Below the pieces are notes generated by a model. It had not been told where the DNA came from. It did no database searches and saw only the letters and a program-made list of their open reading frames with translations. This document shows, in pieces, positions 211 through 13,809 of a stretch of 20,000 nucleotides of DNA. This stretch comes from an uncultured virus (IMG/VR IMGVR_UViG_3300032167_000055). Taxonomy: Duplodnaviria > Heunggongvirae > Uroviricota > Caudoviricetes. Within the stretch, counting starts at the first letter, position 1, and every line of letters starts with the position of its first letter. The translations under genes were made by a program, and so were the position numbers. Where the stretch lies: the IMG/VR virus record IMGVR_UViG_3300032167_000055; one strand, given 5' to 3'.

Positions 211-498
211 TTATACTGAATTTAACTCAAATAAATATATTACACAACTGCACTGTTGAGATGATCCGTATAAATTATATAATGTAACTGTTACTGAAGT
301 TGCCGATGTATTAGATATAGTAACTGAACATAAAAAAGTTGAAGAAATAAATGCATGTGGACTTTTTGTATAATTATATGAAGACAAATCTAGGGTGATT
401 ATTTCATAAGCGTTTACCGCAATAGGATTTGTACTTTTAACTGAAAATGATCTAAAATTTCTAAAAACAATTCCCGATTTATCCACCTTACTATTTAG
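211..498 (-). CDS. Silent tail-fibre C-terminal cassette 1 (LNSKVDKSGIVF...FELNSV, 95 aa)
   Basis: Frame opens inside repeat copy 1 right after a TAG; no RBS before the GTG at 486; Ser/Thr-rich beta-type sequence. The tail-fibre call is mainly by analogy with the other five cassettes. Confidence 0.65.
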   Translation of the reverse strand, partial: LNSKVDKSGIVFRNFRSFSVKSTNPIAVNAYEIITLDLSSYNYTKSPHAFISSTFLCSVTISNTSATSVTVTLYNLYGSSQQCSCVIYLFELNSV

Positions 499-567
499 CT
501 AAATAAAGAATCTGTAAGTCCCGAGAAATATCGAGACTTACAGAAATTTTACTTAACTAAATTCCGT
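488..567 (-). repeat. 80-bp cassette-junction element, copy 1 (putative recombination site plus terminator)
   Basis: ttactatttagctaaataaagaatctgtaagtcccgagaaatatcgagacttacagaaattttacttaactaaattccgt; near-identical to five other copies. Confidence 0.97.
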
Positions 568-589
568 CCCCACACTCCAAAAAATCATA

Positions 590-725
590 CAAAAAGAACG
601 GAGCTGGTGAGAGTAGGTAGCCAAATCCTACTCTCACCAGAACAAAAGTTATTACATGCAAGTTTACCTCTAAATAATGAGTAATCTGCTCTATTATTGG
701 AATTTTCATATGGATATTATCCATT
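590..725 (-). ncRNA. Candidate small RNA A (~135 nt)
   Basis: AACA-N6-TA at 736..725, 5' hairpin atggat-aat-atccat, motif tatgaaaattccaat (710..696), 14-bp terminal hairpin at 604-640 followed by a U-tract; no RBS-led ORF. Confidence 0.5.
604..640 (-). terminator. Intrinsic terminator upstream of cassette 1
   Basis: ctggtgagagtagg / cctactctcaccag, 14-bp perfect stem; T-rich tail on the minus strand. Confidence 0.7.
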
Positions 726-3964: not shown

Positions 3965-4567
3965 TTATTTATACATAATGAAATATGATCTCATATTTGT
4001 ATTTGTTAATCCTAACCAATAAGGAGATTTTATGATTACTGATGTTGAAGTTTTTTCATATACATCTGAAGCACTAACAAATTTTCTATTAGTACCATTA
4101 CTTGTATGCCAGTTTGACACTGAATAAGTTCCATCTGACATTAAGAAACAAGCTGTTCCTACGGCACCACTCTTAGCTTCAACAATATATCCTAGTAATT
4201 GATTAAAATCAGATGGTGAAATATATGATGTTACATCAGTAGTCCAAGGTTTATATATAACAAACTTAGCTTCAATTTCCGCTTGTATCCATTTACCATC
4301 ATGTAAACTTTTAAAAGGGGTTACTGTATCAGCACCGCTTGGTATGTATCCCCAATTTCCTTCCGGATCTTGTCCAAATGAAATATTAGTTAAACTATTA
4401 TGAGTATGACTCTCAAATGAGAACCCACCTAAGTCATACCATCCATCTATTGTACATTTTAACTTTGAACCAGTCCAACCAATATTAACCGTATTAGAGC
4501 TTTGATCTACACCGCCTCCTTGTCTAACAGGAACAAATCCTAGTGAATTTTGCTTGTTACTATTTAG
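3965..4567 (-). CDS. Silent tail-fibre C-terminal cassette 2 (200 aa, start-less, absent from the ORF track)
   Basis: Hand translation LNSNKQNSLGFVPVRQGGGVDQSSNTVNIGWTGSKLKCTIDGWYDLGGFSFESHTH...FGQDPEGNWGYIPSGADTVTPFK...YFIMYK*; the LGFxPVxQGGG..IGW.GS.LK.T.D and WGYIPSGADTVTPF segments are recurrent phage tail-fibre motifs. Confidence 0.85.
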   Translation of the reverse strand, partial: LNSNKQNSLGFVPVRQGGGVDQSSNTVNIGWTGSKLKCTIDGWYDLGGFSFESHTHNSLTNISFGQDPEGNWGYIPSGADTVTPFKSLHDGKWIQAEIEAKFVIYKPWTTDVTSYISPSDFNQLLGYIVEAKSGAVGTACFLMSDGTYSVSNWHTSNGTNRKFVSASDVYEKTSTSVIIKSPYWLGLTNTNMRSYFIMYK

Positions 4568-4636
4568 CTAAATAAAGAATCTGTAAGTCTCGAGAAATAT
4601 CGAGACTTACAGAAAACTTACTTAACTAAATTCCGT
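4557..4636 (-). repeat. 80-bp cassette-junction element, copy 2
   Basis: Same sequence as copy 1, with the perfect 14-bp inner stem tctgtaagtctcga/tcgagacttacaga and the aaactt variant. Confidence 0.97.
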
Positions 4637-4735
4637 CCCCCCTGTCACCACTCTTCACAAAGTCAATATATCATATCTATAAATCAATCGCAAGAGATAT
4701 GATTTTACTATATAACTAACCTATACATTCATATG

Positions 4736-5350
4736 TTAAGGTTTTATAACAACACTCGTTAATGTTAATTTACCATAACCAGTACCATCAAAATATCCTT
4801 CAGTGTCATATCGGATTCTCAGTTTATATGTGCCTGATAATGATGGTAATGTAAATGTTTTATTAACAGCTGTAGATTGAAGTACTCCTCTACCATCAGC
4901 ACTGCCACTTATACTTGCAAGACTCATAACAGTAGTTGTTGCTCCTGTTGATGTATTGTATAATTCTACTGCCATCTTATTAACACCATAATGGTTACCA
5001 TTCCAATATACAGTACCAGTTATAGTTAATCTTTGTCCTGATGGAGTAAAGGTATTTGTTGAAAGTAAGTACGCATATCCATAACCATTATATCCACCAC
5101 CAGCATCAATTTGAATAGTGATACTATTACCAGATAAAACTATAGGATTAGAAGGACGGTCATAATCAATCCAACCATCAGTATAACCACTTGATTGAAG
5201 AGTGTATGACGTAATATTAATGTCAGTAATCTTTTCCCATACTGTAGTAGTTGTAGAACCTTTTACAACATTTACTTTTGTTACATTAGTATTACCAACT
5301 TTAATCGTTCCTGATGAAGGTATAGTGGTTCCATTTACAATAATAGACAT
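4736..5350 (-). CDS. Putative tail-fibre tip adhesin / receptor-binding partner of cassette 3
   Basis: GGAGGT RBS; N-terminus MSIIVNGTTIP..G.I.V....VT.V...VW shared with 5989..6474 and 11436..12338; variable Thr/Gly/Tyr-rich C-terminus. Confidence 0.7.
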   Translation of the reverse strand: MSIIVNGTTIPSSGTIKVGNTNVTKVNVVKGSTTTTVWEKITDINITSYTLQSSGYTDGWIDYDRPSNPIVLSGNSITIQIDAGGGYNGYGYAYLLSTNTFTPSGQRLTITGTVYWNGNHYGVNKMAVELYNTSTGATTTVMSLASISGSADGRGVLQSTAVNKTFTLPSLSGTYKLRIRYDTEGYFDGTGYGKLTLTSVVIKP

Positions 5351-5379
5351 ATTATACCTCCCTAAATTGTAATAGTAAG
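5318..5379. repeat. 62-bp exact direct repeat spanning the fibre/adhesin gene junction (copy 1)
   Basis: aggtatagtggttccatttacaataatagacatattatacctccctaaattgtaatagtaag is identical to 6442..6503. Confidence 0.92.
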
Positions 5380-5883
5380 TGTTGTACCGGATAATGACGC
5401 TCTACAAAGTGTAAAATCTGTAGTATCTACTCTACATACAATACTGGATCCATTCCATCCTAAATACATTATATTTGAATAAGATGGATGCCTTCTGACC
5501 AAGTTTCCATTAGATTCTACTCCAGTCATTGTTGCATAATTTAGAGATGACAGATATGTTATATCTACAAGTTGTCTCCATGTAAATATTTCATGACCAG
5601 CTGAAATAACTCTATAATGAATACCATTATCATTAACCATTGGAAATGCTACTTCAGTATAGTATCCATCTCCATTTGCATGATTCATTCGTATTTTATG
5701 AAACCATGTATTTGCAACAGGTGTTGAATTCTTCTTTGGACCTGACGTTGTTCCATCTCCGGTCGTATTCATATATTCTAATCCAGATTTACCATATACT
5801 GGAGCATTAGAACCTGAATGTAATAGATATGCTAATCCTACAGCAGTTTCTCCAGAAATAACTTTATTTACGTTACTATTTAG
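5362..5883 (-). CDS. Silent tail-fibre C-terminal cassette 3 (173 aa, start-less)
   Basis: ORF 5362..5772 extends upstream in frame to the repeat (LNSNVNKVISGETAVGLAYLLHSGSNAPVYGKSGLEYMNTT...); contains MYLGWNGSSIVCRVD, resembling cassette 2; ends LSGTTLTITI. Confidence 0.82.
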   Translation of the reverse strand, partial: LNSNVNKVISGETAVGLAYLLHSGSNAPVYGKSGLEYMNTTGDGTTSGPKKNSTPVANTWFHKIRMNHANGDGYYTEVAFPMVNDNGIHYRVISAGHEIFTWRQLVDITYLSSLNYATMTGVESNGNLVRRHPSYSNIMYLGWNGSSIVCRVDTTDFTLCRASLSGTTLTITI

Positions 5884-5952
5884 CTAAATAAAGAATCTGT
5901 AAGTCTCGAGAAATATCGAGACTTACAGAAAACTTACTTAACTAAATTCCGT
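5873..5952 (-). repeat. 80-bp cassette-junction element, copy 3
   Basis: Identical to copy 2. Confidence 0.97.
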
Positions 5953-5988: not shown

Positions 5989-6474
5989 TTATGTGAAAGT
6001 ACATGTCAAAGATGTCGTTATAGTATGCGTAGATCCTATATCTCCACCAGATACTCCTATAGTAACGGAAGATTTTCCAGAAATATTTATTTCTAAAGTT
6101 TTTGTATATGTAGAACCTTGAGATGTTCCATCCCATTGTGTTCGTTTGTATAAAGAATAAACAGTTCCATCAACAACAACATTAGCATCTACTCCGTTAC
6201 CATCCCAGCTATTCCATGAAGCAGTTTTTACAGAAGCACTTATAGTTAATTTAGTATGACCACTAAGTGATACTGTATCTAACGTAGAACTATAAGTTCT
6301 GTATTCTTGATCATCACTTGAATTATCCGTATATGAATATGTTTTAGTTATTGGTGTTGCTGATGATTTCCATACACTAGTTCCATTACATTTAACTTCT
6401 GTTATTTGCACACCATTAACTACAATTTTACCCTTTGATGTAGGTATAGTGGTTCCATTTACAATAATAGACAT
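5989..6474 (-). CDS. Putative tail-fibre tip adhesin / receptor-binding partner of cassette 4
   Basis: GGAGGT RBS; N-terminus MSIIVNGTTIP identical to 4736..5350, divergent C-terminus. Confidence 0.7.
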   Translation of the reverse strand: MSIIVNGTTIPTSKGKIVVNGVQITEVKCNGTSVWKSSATPITKTYSYTDNSSDDQEYRTYSSTLDTVSLSGHTKLTISASVKTASWNSWDGNGVDANVVVDGTVYSLYKRTQWDGTSQGSTYTKTLEINISGKSSVTIGVSGGDIGSTHTITTSLTCTFT

Positions 6475-6503
6475 ATTATACCTCCCTAAATTGTAATAGT
6501 AAG
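6442..6503. repeat. 62-bp exact direct repeat spanning the fibre/adhesin gene junction (copy 2)
   Basis: Identical to 5318..5379. Confidence 0.92.
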
Positions 6504-6821
6504 AGTAGTTCCAGATAATGTCATATGACCTATATTCCTCATGTTTTTATATCCAAAATTACCATCACTTTTCTTATATCTGAATAGTAAATCATAACCA
6601 TTATTTGCATCAGTATAAATATATGGTCCTAAACCACTAGCTGAGCCTAAATGGATACTTGCAAAAAATGGAGAAGAACCTGTGGCAGGGCGTGATTGTG
6701 AATCCCATATAGCGTTATTGGATGAATTATATAATACAAGATTTCCATCACTTTGTAATATAAATGTATATCCGTTTTGTGCAGATTTAAAACAAGCACC
6801 ACTAGGTCCATTACTATTTAG
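6486..6821 (-). CDS. Silent tail-fibre C-terminal cassette 4 (111 aa, start-less, absent from the ORF track) with a bulb-type-lectin-like motif
   Basis: Hand translation LNSNGPSGACFKSAQNGYTFILQSDGNLVLYNSSNNAIWDS...GHMTLSGTTLTITI*; QSDGNLVLY fits QxDxNxVxY. Confidence 0.82.
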   Translation of the reverse strand, partial: LNSNGPSGACFKSAQNGYTFILQSDGNLVLYNSSNNAIWDSQSRPATGSSPFFASIHLGSASGLGPYIYTDANNGYDLLFRYKKSDGNFGYKNMRNIGHMTLSGTTLTITI

Positions 6822-6890
6822 CTAAATAAAGAATCTGTAAGTCCCGAGAAATATCGAGACTTACAGAAAACTTACTTAACTAAATTCCGT
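6811..6890 (-). repeat. 80-bp cassette-junction element, copy 4
   Basis: Consensus with the gtcccgag and aaactt variants. Confidence 0.97.
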
Positions 6891-6956
6891 GACGACCACC
6901 CTACTCTCCAAAAATATAGAAAAATCTTATACCTATCTAGATTTTCTTAATTTTTC

Positions 6957-6968
6957 AACATTTTTGTA
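6957..6968 (+). promoter_or_regulatory. Putative phage-RNAP late promoter AACA-N6-TA
   Basis: aaca-tttttg-ta upstream of the RBS of 6992; near-identical context at 13776. Confidence 0.65.
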
Positions 6969-6991
6969 ATGTATAGAAAGGAAGTGAAAAA

Positions 6992-11435: not shown

Positions 11436-12338
11436 TTAGACTAATGTAATTTTAGCCCAACCATTTCCATCTCGAACACCATTTTCCATAGAACCTGATG
11501 TGACTCCTCCTATATATCCAGAACCACCACCAGCTCCAGACCATCCTCCACCAGGACCACCACCATATAATCCGCCTCCGCCACCAGCAGAATTATGGAT
11601 ATCACTATTAGCTTTTCCGAAAAATCCTCTATATAGGTCAGGGGTTTCACCTATATCATTATAACCACCGGCAGTTTGTGTACCGCCAGTTCCATATGAA
11701 AAGTAATCATCTGAAACATAATCTCCTATAACGGTTCCATTTCCACCAGTAGTTCCACCACCAGTACCACCAACACCATAATGCGTATCATCGTGATATG
11801 AAGCGCCTCCTCCACCACCAGCTACAATAAATAATCCGTTTGTAGATCCATGATCAGCTAACGTTGAGTTGAATGTACCTATATGAGTACATCCTCCTCC
11901 ACTTCCATTATAATATAATACTGTAGGTGCATTAGCACCACCATTATATCCACCAGGGTAAGTTATTGGCTGAGTGTTTATTTCACTACCTCTTTGACTA
12001 CAATCTGTTCCTTGTCCACCCACACAGACATATATAGTTTGACCTGCTGTAAGATTTGCATATCCTTTAGCATATCCTCCAAAACCACCTGCAATATGGT
12101 TAGTTACATGACCGCCTCGTGCACCCTTAACTTCAAGAAGGTATGTACCTGTAACAGGTACAGTAAACGCTTGTACTCCTCCTGTATAATTAAATTCTTT
12201 AGATGAAAAACTAGAAACTTGCCATACAGTTGTTGTTACTCCATCTTTCACCACATTAACTTTAGTTATTTTAGTAGATCCAACTTTTAAACTACCTTCT
12301 GTAGTTGGTATAGTAGTATTTCCAACTTTAATAGCCAT
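11436..12338 (-). CDS. Glycine-rich-domain adhesin / receptor-binding partner of cassette 5
   Basis: GGAGGT RBS; N-terminus related to the MSIIVNGTTIP proteins, then FNYTGGVQAFTVPVTGTYLLEVKGARGG, GGYNGG, IVAGGGGG, GGGGGLYGGG, GGGSGYIGGV, GNGWAKIT (polyglycine domain). Confidence 0.82.
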   Translation of the reverse strand: MAIKVGNTTIPTTEGSLKVGSTKITKVNVVKDGVTTTVWQVSSFSSKEFNYTGGVQAFTVPVTGTYLLEVKGARGGHVTNHIAGGFGGYAKGYANLTAGQTIYVCVGGQGTDCSQRGSEINTQPITYPGGYNGGANAPTVLYYNGSGGGCTHIGTFNSTLADHGSTNGLFIVAGGGGGASYHDDTHYGVGGTGGGTTGGNGTVIGDYVSDDYFSYGTGGTQTAGGYNDIGETPDLYRGFFGKANSDIHNSAGGGGGLYGGGPGGGWSGAGGGSGYIGGVTSGSMENGVRDGNGWAKITLV

Positions 12339-12351
12339 ATCACAATACCTC

Positions 12352-12999
12352 CTATAAAGTAATAGTTAATGTTGTACCACTTAAAGAAAAATGCGAAGAT
12401 CTCATTATTTTTGATATAGTTCCACTATTATTAATATATTTAAGATTTCCATCATTATCTAAATATAATATGCCTGCAACAACTCCAGAATTATGAAAAC
12501 CATAACTAGCTCTATTTGAAGTTGTACTAGCATTACTAGCCTCTGCTGAAAAATGGGCTGCAGTATAGTTATTATTAGCTGGGGCAAATGCCATAGATAC
12601 TTTTTGTGCTCCAGTGAATGAATTCGATGTTTTTACTGCTTTTGCATTAAGTTGTGTTTGTATATCGCTGGTAACATTTGATAAATATCCAAGTTTATCA
12701 ATAGTAGTTTTATTATTTATTTTATAATTGCTATCAATTGTCATTGTTTTATTAAATGGGTGAATCTGAATCATTGCAGATTCACCTACTACTGTCGTAC
12801 CATCTTCAGATTTAAGTCCAAATAATCTAAAATATCCTTTATAGTTATCCAAAGTTAAATTAGAATACTTCTTTCCATCGTCAGCTGCACTTAACTGTAA
12901 TTCACCACCTTCAGCACCATCAGTTCCACCTGTTAAAGGTTTCAATTGAAGATTGCCTTTCATTCGTCCGCCATGTACAGTCACCATATTACTATTTAG
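12352..12999 (-). CDS. Silent tail-fibre C-terminal cassette 5 (215 aa)
   Basis: In frame from the repeat: LNSNMVTVHGGRMKGNL (GGxMxGxL fibre motif); internal LGYLSNVTSDIQTQLNAK; ends LSGTTLTITL; the ATG at 12987 has no RBS. Confidence 0.85.
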   Translation of the reverse strand, partial: LNSNMVTVHGGRMKGNLQLKPLTGGTDGAEGGELQLSAADDGKKYSNLTLDNYKGYFRLFGLKSEDGTTVVGESAMIQIHPFNKTMTIDSNYKINNKTTIDKLGYLSNVTSDIQTQLNAKAVKTSNSFTGAQKVSMAFAPANNNYTAAHFSAEASNASTTSNRASYGFHNSGVVAGILYLDNDGNLKYINNSGTISKIMRSSHFSLSGTTLTITL

Positions 13000-13068
13000 C
13001 TAAATAAGAAATCTGTAAGTCTCGAGAAATATCGAGACTTACAGAAATTTTACTTAACTAAATTCCGT
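12989..13068 (-). repeat. 80-bp cassette-junction element, copy 5
   Basis: Consensus with the taaataagaaatctg variant. Confidence 0.97.
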
Positions 13069-13100
13069 CCACTCCCACATGATATAAAATTATTAATTAT

Positions 13101-13649
13101 TTATAAAAAAGATAGACGTTTTTCATGATCCTGTAAAATTTTAAGAATTGGTGTGACCAATTTAGCATAATCTAAACCTTCAATTACATTTTCGCTAAAA
13201 ATAACTGGATACGAAATATAATCATACACTTCTTCTGCTATAAGACCTACACAATTAATTCCGTTTTCTTTATTTTTATAATCATACGTTACAGGTCTTA
13301 ATTTTAAAATTTGTTTAGCATATTCTAAATCAAGATCTTTGACATTTTCTTTATATCGTATACTACTAGGATTTGTAAATGCAGATGCATATATAGGTAC
13401 ATTAGCAGTCACACCTGTATTATTACAATGAATTTCCTTAGCACAAAGTCTCGCGACATATGAATTAGATGCTGATACTAAATATACATCTCTATTATCT
13501 AACGCTCTATATTGACTAGCCTTTATATTGTTATTTACAATAACAACACCTGTACACGTTCCACCACCAAGCGGTAAATAACTATGAGTGTGAGAACTCG
13601 TTGCATATCCACTATGAGTATGATTAGTATCTGCTTTGTTACTATTTAG
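13101..13649 (-). CDS. Silent tail-fibre C-terminal cassette 6 (182 aa) with an intramolecular chaperone (peptidase S74-like) domain
   Basis: In frame from the repeat: LNSNKADTNHTHSGYATSSHTHSYLPLGGGTCTG..., continuing into ORF 13101..13412 with SSIRYKENV, LRPVTYDYK, GLIAEEV, LDYAKLV. Confidence 0.88.
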   Translation of the reverse strand, partial: LNSNKADTNHTHSGYATSSHTHSYLPLGGGTCTGVVIVNNNIKASQYRALDNRDVYLVSASNSYVARLCAKEIHCNNTGVTANVPIYASAFTNPSSIRYKENVKDLDLEYAKQILKLRPVTYDYKNKENGINCVGLIAEEVYDYISYPVIFSENVIEGLDYAKLVTPILKILQDHEKRLSFL

Positions 13650-13718
13650 CTAAATAAAGAATCTGTAAGTCCCTAGAAATATCGAGACTTACAGAAATTT
13701 TACTTAACTAAATTCCGT
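13639..13718 (-). repeat. 80-bp cassette-junction element, copy 6
   Basis: Consensus with the gtccctag variant near the loop. Confidence 0.97.
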
Positions 13719-13775
13719 CAACCCACCCAACCTTATTACAAGGTTAACACAATACTCTCATATTTTAACTATTAA

Positions 13776-13787
13776 AACATTTTTTTA
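13776..13787 (+). promoter_or_regulatory. Putative phage-RNAP late promoter AACA-N6-TA
   Basis: aaca-tttttt-ta followed by atgtataggaagg, matching the context at 6957. Confidence 0.65.
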
Positions 13788-13809
13788 ATGTATAGGAAGG
13801 TGGATTATT

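Follow-up and report, generated by a model that had tools for sequence, protein, structure and literature searches.

A repeated 80-bp hairpin element as the probable vacant docking site of tail-fibre tip switching in a jumbo phage

Why a hairpin-forming element of 80 bp should stand, again and again, directly ahead of an open reading frame that has no start of its own is the question raised by the phage DNA considered here (the window, 20,000 nucleotides analysed in full). The window covers positions 111838-131837, minus strand, of one virus record (G000; 278,849 bp, 32% G+C), which is complete according to CheckV and has no tRNA genes; with a tubulin and split homologues of the RNA-polymerase subunits beta and beta', the virus looks like a phiKZ-type jumbo phage. 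A preliminary description of the window had placed one such element at 488-567, with its sense strand on the minus strand, and both details are correct. The answer proposed below, to which we give a probability of roughly 0.6, is that the element marks an unoccupied docking site in a DNA-level switch between tail-fibre tips, in which one module is exchanged with short plugs.

Regarding its distribution, the element occurs six times in the window, always in one orientation (Table 1), and 18 times in the whole genome, from 19309 to 171783; of these, 16 are intact, another has a 1-base insertion in its last 11 bases, and the remaining one is truncated after position 61. On the minus strand of the window, the element is composed of a left end, ACGGAATTTAGTTAAGTA (L), a 51-bp core, and a right end, CTAAATAGTAA (R). 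L contains the stop codons TAG and TAA. R corresponds to the 11 conserved bases already recognized on the coding side; it is invariant in 16/16 intact copies and is also found in frame within the complete fibre gene, forming a short conserved repeat at the junction between constant and variable parts. The perfect 14-bp palindrome reported at this boundary, TATTTAG/CTAAATA, is present in all six window copies and in 15 of the 16 intact genome copies, the exception (genome 56879) having A in place of G. The in-frame stop, likewise anticipated, occupies element positions 67-69 and is TAG in 15 copies and TAA in one, and TAA in 35/35 copies of the related phage G007 described below; with both codons in frame, stop-codon recoding was discarded. 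Core polymorphisms occur in all four combinations, for positions 20-21 with 47 as for 47 with 60-61, which indicates that exchange also takes place inside the cores; such internal breakpoints fit homology-driven conversion. As for its occurrence elsewhere, a search of a phage collection gave no match to the element, an exact-hairpin scan of IMG/VR returned fragments of the source phage only, and a search with a 16-base L pattern gave 64 loci, 33 from the source phage and 31 unrelated chance or coding matches.

Table 1. Positions of the elements and of the silent tip ORFs in the window, counted from its first letter.
Feature	Position	Strand	Remarks
Silent tip ORF 1	211..498	-	95 codons from CTA
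Element copy 1	488..567	-	Vacant docking site (proposed); hairpin folded
R end of copy 1 (positions 70-80)	488..498	-	CTAAATAGTAA, LNS+N/K; invariant; right crossover region
Core ("plug") of copy 1 (positions 19-69)	499..549	-	51 bp; inner hairpin, U-rich tail, in-frame TAG at 499-501
L end of copy 1 (positions 1-18)	550..567	-	ACGGAATTTAGTTAAGTA; invariant; kept at the occupied site; left crossover region
Silent tip ORF 2	3965..4567	-	200 codons; first start-type codon not before codon 142
Element copy 2	4557..4636	-	
Silent tip ORF 3	5362..5883	-	173 codons
Element copy 3	5873..5952	-	
Silent tip ORF 4	6486..6821	-	111 codons; weak B-lectin match, E 0.004, below cut-off
Element copy 4	6811..6890	-	
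Silent tip ORF 5	12352..12999	-	215 codons
Element copy 5	12989..13068	-	
Silent tip ORF 6	13101..13649	-	182 codons; Peptidase_S74 chaperone domain, 2.9e-09
Element copy 6	13639..13718	-	Stem mismatch variant CTAGGG

The copies had been thought to head silent cassettes read on the minus strand, and this proved right: start-less tip ORFs lie behind the 16 intact copies, and in every one of them the frame in phase with TAG/CTA AAT AGT AAn is open over 90-453 codons, against at most 53 codons in either of the other two downstream. In the copy with the 1-base insertion, the open frame is displaced correspondingly. A start-type codon is found within 5 codons of the junction in 4/16 copies, and elsewhere the first one appears at 10 to 142 codons. 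Coding runs directly from the end of the element, since in the two homologous tip pairs that were found the synonymous differences start right at the junction; over the first 15 codons, 4 and 5 differences are synonymous and 5 and 2 non-synonymous. Judged by their domains and motifs, the products resemble tail-fibre tips: of the 15 that were scanned, three have the Peptidase_S74 intramolecular chaperone and one an H-type lectin domain, and the motifs HTHS and YLPLSGGT recur. Ordinary genes that have a ribosome-binding site and an ATG of their own stand behind several of the tips. Translational bypass from a mini-ORF was also considered and rejected, as one copy has no upstream start codon and a DNA-level fusion explains the data.

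Outside the element copies, the whole genome has two further occurrences of the 11-base end and one of the 5' end. The first of these 11-mers, at 102745, matches the chance level (by our estimate, about 0.9 are expected); the other, at 137332, is in frame in a complete fibre gene (genome 136210-138090, 626 aa), in which the junction reads ...LLQNQIDT-LNSN-MSSYLPLSGGTLTG... and CTAAATAGTAA provides codons 375-378. The lone 18-base L is located at 135681, 1,651 bp upstream of this R, and the expression locus extends from 135681 to 138090, outside the window. Between L and R lies a module of 1,633 bp, made of a promoter region and a 374-codon N-terminal anchor; it contains, in detail, a hairpin terminator, a 55-aa antisense ORF (without a match in any of three collections, NCBIfam, PHROGs and the protein atlas), an intergenic region that includes a ribosome-binding site, and the 374 fibre codons. 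The anchor is single-copy in the genome. From its layout, the complete fibre gene looks like an element whose 51-bp core gave way to 1,633 bp, and conversely the 80-bp element is probably the unoccupied form of a two-ended recombination site that stands ahead of every spare tail-fibre tip.

Support for this reading comes from five IMG/VR fragments of the same phage, assembled from other metagenomes and compared whole with G000, to which they are 99.995-100% identical outside the sites in question; all these variants are metagenome assemblies, and recombination is known here from sequence arrangements. The first, G001 (86,578 bp), is collinear with G000, with 4 scattered single-base differences in 77,776 bp followed by 8,751 identical bases, and in it exactly 135699-137331 is replaced by 51 bp, which leaves a perfect 80-bp element before the NMSSYLPLSGG tip; the replacement core is identical, letter for letter, to the core of site 153792 in G000, G004 and G005, which is unique for its loop, TATCTC. 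The second, G006 (33,012 bp), has the left flank of the expression locus, the module, the 11 bases, and then the tip of site 153792. It lacks 16.5 kb, including an RNA-polymerase beta-like gene of 1,612 aa, and therefore it is not read as a viable genome and is taken as a path through a mixed population, or as a defective or intermediate molecule; reads with its junction must, we infer, be present, because the 11 shared bases are shorter than any assembly word. In G002, 4 differences from G000 were counted in 107,724 bases, all of them in the core of site 153792 (positions 20, 21, 41 and 47), and the contig starts at the first base of the expression-locus R 11-mer.

Taken at the level of sequence arrangements, these variants make it very probable that the inserts, be they module or core, are exchanged between sites at L and R with the flanks fixed; since inserts are swapped while flanks stay put, the crossovers are placed within the 18 left and 11 right bases. 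The right breakpoint of the real DNA rearrangements, in G001 and G006, is exactly at G/CTAAATAGTAA, and on this side it falls within the AGCTAAATAGTAA core that had been indicated as the crossover. The preliminary description had also regarded RNA-level joining as a less likely alternative, and indeed it is unlikely, because the joined forms are present in the DNA of near-identical genomes; trans-splicing was rejected on the same ground. Two features are absent from that description, namely the second, left crossover region in the first 18 bases, and the identity of the moving part, which is the promoter-plus-anchor module rather than the cassettes.

As a side observation on raw-data contigs, those of runs X4, X7, X8 and X10 were mapped, and the joints, among those listed, had sides of 21-29 letters. 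One Logan contig of run X4 begins at the same first base of R as G002, which is a weak hint; contigs of runs X8 and X10 leave L031 17343-18009, which is the tip portion of the complete fibre gene, uncovered and cover the anchor bin, an observation that, coming from contigs, is not evidence.

Further information came from an anchor search of 5.8 billion proteins, which returned relatives with anchors 95% to 65% identical; all of them end with LLQNQI..LNS[NK] or LNCN and continue with unrelated tips. In P0001 (anchor 95%), the tip is 67.5% identical to the tip silent at 171783 in the source phage, and P0006, P0007 and P0008 have one common anchor with three different tips. P0007 was located on G007, a complete record of 275,512 bp with terminal repeats, which has 35 copies of a diverged 80-bp element in 22 distinct sequences: positions 1-17 are invariant in 34/35 copies and positions 67-80 in 35/35, and the variation occurs only at positions 21-60, bar one change at position 11. 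ORFs of 86-272 codons follow in the same phase behind all 35 copies. This phage has a single occupied site, which combines an L half (at about 185926), an anchor-bearing module of about 1.3 kb and, in frame, the R core AAACTGCAAC; the tip of P0006 is 99% identical to the one silent at G007 185506, and the recombinase homologue is 74% identical to that of the source phage. Both the layout and the recombinase are accordingly conserved, by sequence, in a second phage. Distant anchor homologues (25 loci, L040-L064) are without the element, and the repeats found there are coding repeats.

As for the fold, the inner stem described earlier (14 pairs, positions 24-37 with 44-57, and a 6-nt loop) was recovered, with TTCTTTATTT or TTTCTTATTT behind it on the minus strand; so were the outer arms, which add 15 pairs across a 3x3 internal loop, for a total of 29 pairs and about 32 nt per arm. 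Within the source phage, the strand-biased G-U pairing is indeed present, with standard pairs in 98.7% of the pair cells on the sense strand versus 89.7% on the other; wobbles are found at 12-69, 16-65, 20-61 and 34-47, of which 34-47 is the ctc/ccc variant of copies 1, 4 and 6. RNA folding gave -35.4 and -37.7 kcal/mol for the sense versus -23.7 and -28.5 for the antisense strand, with z-scores of -5.8 to -8.5 and none of 200 shuffles equally stable, and DNA folding parameters had the same strand direction. No pair (0/29) changed on both sides within the source genome.

Two functional readings had been attached to this fold. The proposal that it is selected on the sense strand does not extend to G007, where the antisense strand folds better in 35/35 copies, with a mean of -23.3 versus -18.0 kcal/mol and with more G-U pairs (antisense versus sense, per copy on a fixed structure: 2.9 versus 1.5 in G007, 0.25 versus 2.9 in the source phage). 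Regarding the terminator, a pattern scan found a terminator-like arrangement on the minus strand of 5/6 window copies, within a window that has 26 such sites versus 5.6 ± 2.7 in shuffles; it is not a conserved trait, as the G007 copies, read by eye, have no U-rich tail after the stem, and the tail is A-rich or mixed. Neither the sense-strand RNA fold, with its G-U bias, nor the terminator, with its U tract, is conserved across both phages, and the two readings are accordingly unproven; the terminator of the source phage, predicted from its pattern, may still function there. When 8 distinct source-phage copies and 22 distinct G007 copies were aligned, standard pairs filled 81.6% of the pair cells and five pairs changed on both sides between the phages, including 10-71 (A-U to U-A), 31-50 and 33-48; the covariation score was 0.125, with slid controls at or below 0.051 and 0/500 shuffles reaching it. 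These compensatory changes indicate that the inverted repeat is maintained, through independent events that are few, coming from two lineages. Conserved in both phages is an inverted repeat that is symmetric between the strands, fixed at its ends and variable in its middle, and that has a stop codon immediately ahead of the junction.

The enzyme had been sought among the serine recombinases; a six-frame search of the whole genome with PF00239 gave no matches, and the control search matched in 12/14 genomes. Pfam and a six-frame search found instead one tyrosine recombinase gene (PF00589), at 64172-65194, and its product has the core-binding and catalytic domains only (PF00589, 5.5e-37, and Phage_int_SAM_4). 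It scored 231 bits with the NCBIfam XerA model, versus a cut-off of 220, and it aligned to the Pyrococcus XerA structure 4a8e with 9.4e-32; the alignment, read by eye, has the catalytic R, K, HxxR, H and Y. Its scores were far below the cut-offs of the integron-integrase models (TIGR02249, 82.7 bits versus a cut-off of 265; PRK15417, 50.6 versus 435). The gene adjoins a tail-fibre-like gene and is about 71 kb from the expression locus, and a 38%-identical relative (L099) has no repeat family nearby. The link between this enzyme and the sites would come from its being the sole candidate and from its co-conservation in one relative, and that this Xer-like tyrosine recombinase performs the exchange is, in our judgement, a little better than an even bet. 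The Pfam scan covered 220 ORFs of at least 120 aa, with 10 ORFs across tile borders and all shorter ORFs left out; no reverse-transcriptase family was found among these 220 ORFs, which speaks against a diversity-generating retroelement, nor was any transposase family, and the idea that the element is a MITE of a transposon was dropped on this account.

Starting from the anatomy of the element, the phase lock of the tips and the alternative DNA arrangements, all documented above, the following mechanism can be proposed. At a vacant site, the 51-bp plug would leave the tip without promoter, start codon or anchor, and it would bring stop codons and, in the source phage, a terminator-like stem with a U tract; a silencing role of the plug is suggested by these features. 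At a single site, the module would sit between L and R, and one complete fibre would be made. DNA recombination at L and at R would then swap the module with the plug of another site, after which a different tip would be expressed and the vacated one plugged; the likeliest enzyme would be the single Xer-like tyrosine recombinase of the phage, and two unlike short overlap sequences would stop L from recombining with R. As for these, on the left the occupied and vacant forms are identical up to and including AGTTAAGTA and no further, and on the right their identity resumes at AAATAGTAA or immediately ahead of it; the counterparts of these stretches in G007 are TGTTAAGT and AAACTGCAA; given these limits, stretches of about 9 bases are suggested as the overlap regions whose difference may separate L from R.

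Regarding the order of events, it might be one double exchange, or an excision at R followed by re-entry at L. If the sites are in direct orientation, the new tip would be joined to the anchor by recombination at R, which would also free the intervening DNA, as in the junction of G006; recombination at L would then restore the DNA and leave the plug at the old site, as in G001. For inverted sites, the same two steps would be two inversions that cancel out, and a concerted double exchange would give the same result. Several points count against this explanation: R has no conserved arm on the tip side, the 11 and 18 bases common to the occupied site are short for a classical core site, and the module was not found behind the left flank of site 153792 ("site B"); to these are added points given above, namely the exchange inside the cores, the about 71 kb between recombinase gene and expression locus, the 16.5 kb lacking in G006, and the terminator-like tail and sense-strand bias, which G007 does not conserve. 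On a wider scale, and at a little short of even chances, a clade of gut jumbo phages would keep 16-35 scattered silent tips plugged by hairpins, with one recombinase swapping the module, in a natural exchange that resembles recombinase-mediated cassette exchange; on the same tentative footing, exactly one tip would be expressed at a time and the gene order would be kept, whatever the orientation or the distance of the sites.

The same exchange might also occur with no dedicated enzyme, by general recombination or replication, that is, by gene conversion or template switching at the repeats; the repeated elements and the 18- and 11-base identities would prime it, and host availability would select the rare products. 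The four core-variant combinations, with breakpoints also inside the 80-bp repeats, agree with this possibility, as does a genome that encodes RusA, an SMC/SbcC-like ATPase and a helicase, and the hairpin could stall replication forks. Identities of 18 and 11 bases are, however, very short for homologous exchange, and L and R are invariant (16/16 here; in G007, 34/35 for L and 35/35 for R) while the cores drift, which indicates sequence-specific recognition; moreover, the Xer-like recombinase would be left with no evident role in a seemingly lytic jumbo phage. On balance, an exchange of this kind is unlikely, and it is still the strongest competitor of the docking-site reading. Somewhat less probable again is the possibility, raised in the preliminary description with attC as its model, that the folded single strand is itself the recombination substrate, like integron attC or the CTX-phage hairpin used by Xer, with conserved boxes at the base of the hairpin and a variable terminal structure above. 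The tyrosine-recombinase family does include members that use hairpins, and in the element the outer helix and the base of the inner one are conserved, the hairpin tip is variable, and five pairs change on both sides between phages (0.125 versus at most 0.051 in controls). Yet the preferred strand flips between the two phages, the recombinase is far under the integron-integrase model (82.7 bits versus 265), and the occupied site could pair only about 7 bases across 1.6 kb; in addition, inverted protein-binding sites in double-stranded DNA predict compensatory changes equally well, and the two lineages provide few independent events.

A role of the element mainly as an RNA or transcription signal, be it a terminator or a hairpin for processing, with the tips joined at the RNA level or translated alone via an unusual start, is very improbable. 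The strong RNA hairpin on the sense strand and its U-rich tail in the source phage would suit such a role, but the joined forms exist in DNA, in the G007 copies the U tract is absent and the antisense strand gives the better fold, and for 12/16 tips the first 5 codons from the junction include no start codon. The earlier remark that intron motifs were missing from the element also stands: a whole-genome Rfam scan at gathering scores matched no RNA family at any 80-bp element, with the group I and II covariance models matching none there; it found no group II intron or other Rfam RNA, and the single group I intron of the genome (170908-171185) is unrelated to the element.

Among the described systems, the closest is the Rin shufflon of Bifidobacterium prophages (Mavrich et al. 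2018, PMC6109161): it is phage-encoded and has an XerD-like tyrosine recombinase without arm-binding domain, and in it the receptor-binding protein has one constant N-terminal part, to which several variable C-terminal genes without a start correspond, with an asymmetric repeat of 11 bp at every junction; the locus is compact, sits beside the recombinase and works by inversion between inverted sites. The same account lists Gin, Cin and Min (phages Mu, P1 and p15B; PMC6109161), which give alternative tail-fibre C-termini by inversion within the coding sequence with serine recombinases. Rin and the present system have in common an armless Xer-type enzyme, a constant N-part, start-less C-terminal variants and an 11-bp junction repeat. 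Unlike Rin, the tips here are 16 (35 in the relative), spread over 152 kb with 12/16 in the orientation of the anchor; an 80-bp hairpin element with a second conserved end heads each of them, and in the variant state a 51-bp core takes the place of a 1.6-kb module, collinearly and without inversion. Likewise, differently from Gin, Cin and Min as portrayed there, the source genome has no serine recombinase and the change is a replacement, not an inversion. More generally, the clustering and inversion typical of a shufflon were not found, as the sites span genome 19309-171783 and G001 is collinear.

Alternative C-termini for one adhesin are also produced by the R64/IncI shufflon, where the Rci tyrosine recombinase acts on crossover sites conserved on one side only; it is a clustered plasmid pilus system that uses inversions only, and it differs from the present one, which has a hairpin plug and a moving promoter module. 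In the vsa/HvsR and vpma/Xer1 surface-protein systems of Mycoplasma, one promoter-bearing 5' region serves many silent genes through an Xer-like enzyme; these are, in contrast, clustered, inversion-based cellular loci. Integrons have promoterless cassettes, a tyrosine recombinase, and, in attC, an imperfect inverted repeat whose ends are conserved and whose middle varies; the element is similarly an inverted repeat of comparable size, conserved at its ends and variable in the middle. Unlike an integron, the phage has no integron integrase and no attI-Pc platform beside the recombinase gene, the latter being at 64172-65194 and the expression locus at 135681-138090; in addition, the fusions are in frame, the expression module moves, and the strand preference is not conserved. 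In engineered recombinase-mediated cassette exchange, two unlike sites flank interchangeable inserts and the flanks are unchanged, and here, too, unlike L and R flank swappable inserts; to our knowledge, this exchange between heterospecific sites has no known natural counterpart. A full-text literature search, mostly of listings and abstracts, gave no description of such a system, and the portion of PMC12386605 considered concerns retroelement cassettes. With respect to Rin, the added traits are the two-ended 80-bp element, the dispersed library and a mobile expression module that is replaced.

What a phage can do in a community, and how it can be used, is limited chiefly by its host range, and the known programmed switches offer few tips, chosen by flipping a local DNA segment. 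In the present case, a jumbo phage of the lytic type appears to draw on a library of 16 tips (35 in its relative) via a moving expression module, and tip switching probably alters the range of bacteria that it attacks; judging from the assemblies, natural populations already exist in several states. If true, this would represent a new geometry of site-specific recombination, in which inserts are replaced between two unlike sites across distances of tens of kilobases; it would account for the Xer-like recombinase of such phages, and it would mean that their metagenome assemblies break or are mis-joined at these sites. The element itself offers a simple sequence handle for locating tip libraries.

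In the expression module, the insert carrying the promoter and the anchor at site A, the left end contains the L-like word GTTAAGTAA a second time, approximately 20-26 bases inside the module; this is seen both in the window phage and in the related phage G007, and in both the inner copy is preceded by the shared sequence TAAACAAAAC. The inner GTTAAGTAA copy may be a binding arm specific to the module. As for the elements themselves, every one is preceded on the sense strand by 12-18 bases rich in G and nearly devoid of C, and the G007 copies have the same feature. In the window phage these stretches contain 38-46% G and 5-6% C, versus 16% each for the genome, while the G007 values are 56% and 1%, respectively; the actual base sequence is not conserved. 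The G-rich stretch might belong to the left binding arm, or it might be a feature of the transcript.

Locations of the features discussed in the text
Feature	Coordinates	Strand
Left end of expression module	genome 135699-135745 (L024 4699-4745); G007 185943-185985	
G-rich stretches immediately 5' of elements	window 568-590, 4637-4655, 6891-6910, 13069-13085, 13719-13735	minus
41-bp motif, two places	window 6941-6981, 13760-13800	plus
Decayed element copies	genome 41439-41518, 96095-96175	
Group I intron (82 bits)	genome 170908-171185 (L033 10908-11185)	
MSIIVNGTTIP... family members after tips	window 4736-5350, 5989-6474	minus
	genome 172333-172920	
Glycine-rich repeat protein, directly 3' of tip 5	window 11436-12338	minus

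Two element copies are decayed: one has lost all sequence beyond position 61 and has no tip, and the other carries a 1-base insertion within its 11-base end, which would place its 95-codon tip out of frame upon fusion. Regarding the recombinase, its gene in G001, the near-identical record with a vacant site A, has a C-to-T change at genome position 64461 (Ser97Leu), one of only four scattered differences over 77.8 kb.

The group I intron is preceded by an HNH endonuclease ORF and splits a gene taken, from its context, for the large terminase; it is not related to the elements. The two blocks of genes on the plus strand that run divergently from element copies 4 and 6 share a 41-bp motif at their 5' side, whose 3' end reads TAATGTATAG(A/G)AAGG; it may act as a promoter of the phage or as a leader.

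Finally, the 300 aa glycine-rich protein that follows tip 5 has matches among phage protein families to which no function is assigned (PHROG 5811, 1.1e-27). Three tips have, on their 3' side, a gene belonging to a single small family (MSIIVNGTTIP...) that matches no known family. These three genes each carry a ribosome-binding site of their own and are 94% conserved over an 85-bp stretch where the gene starts; their products may be tip-specific helpers or second subunits.
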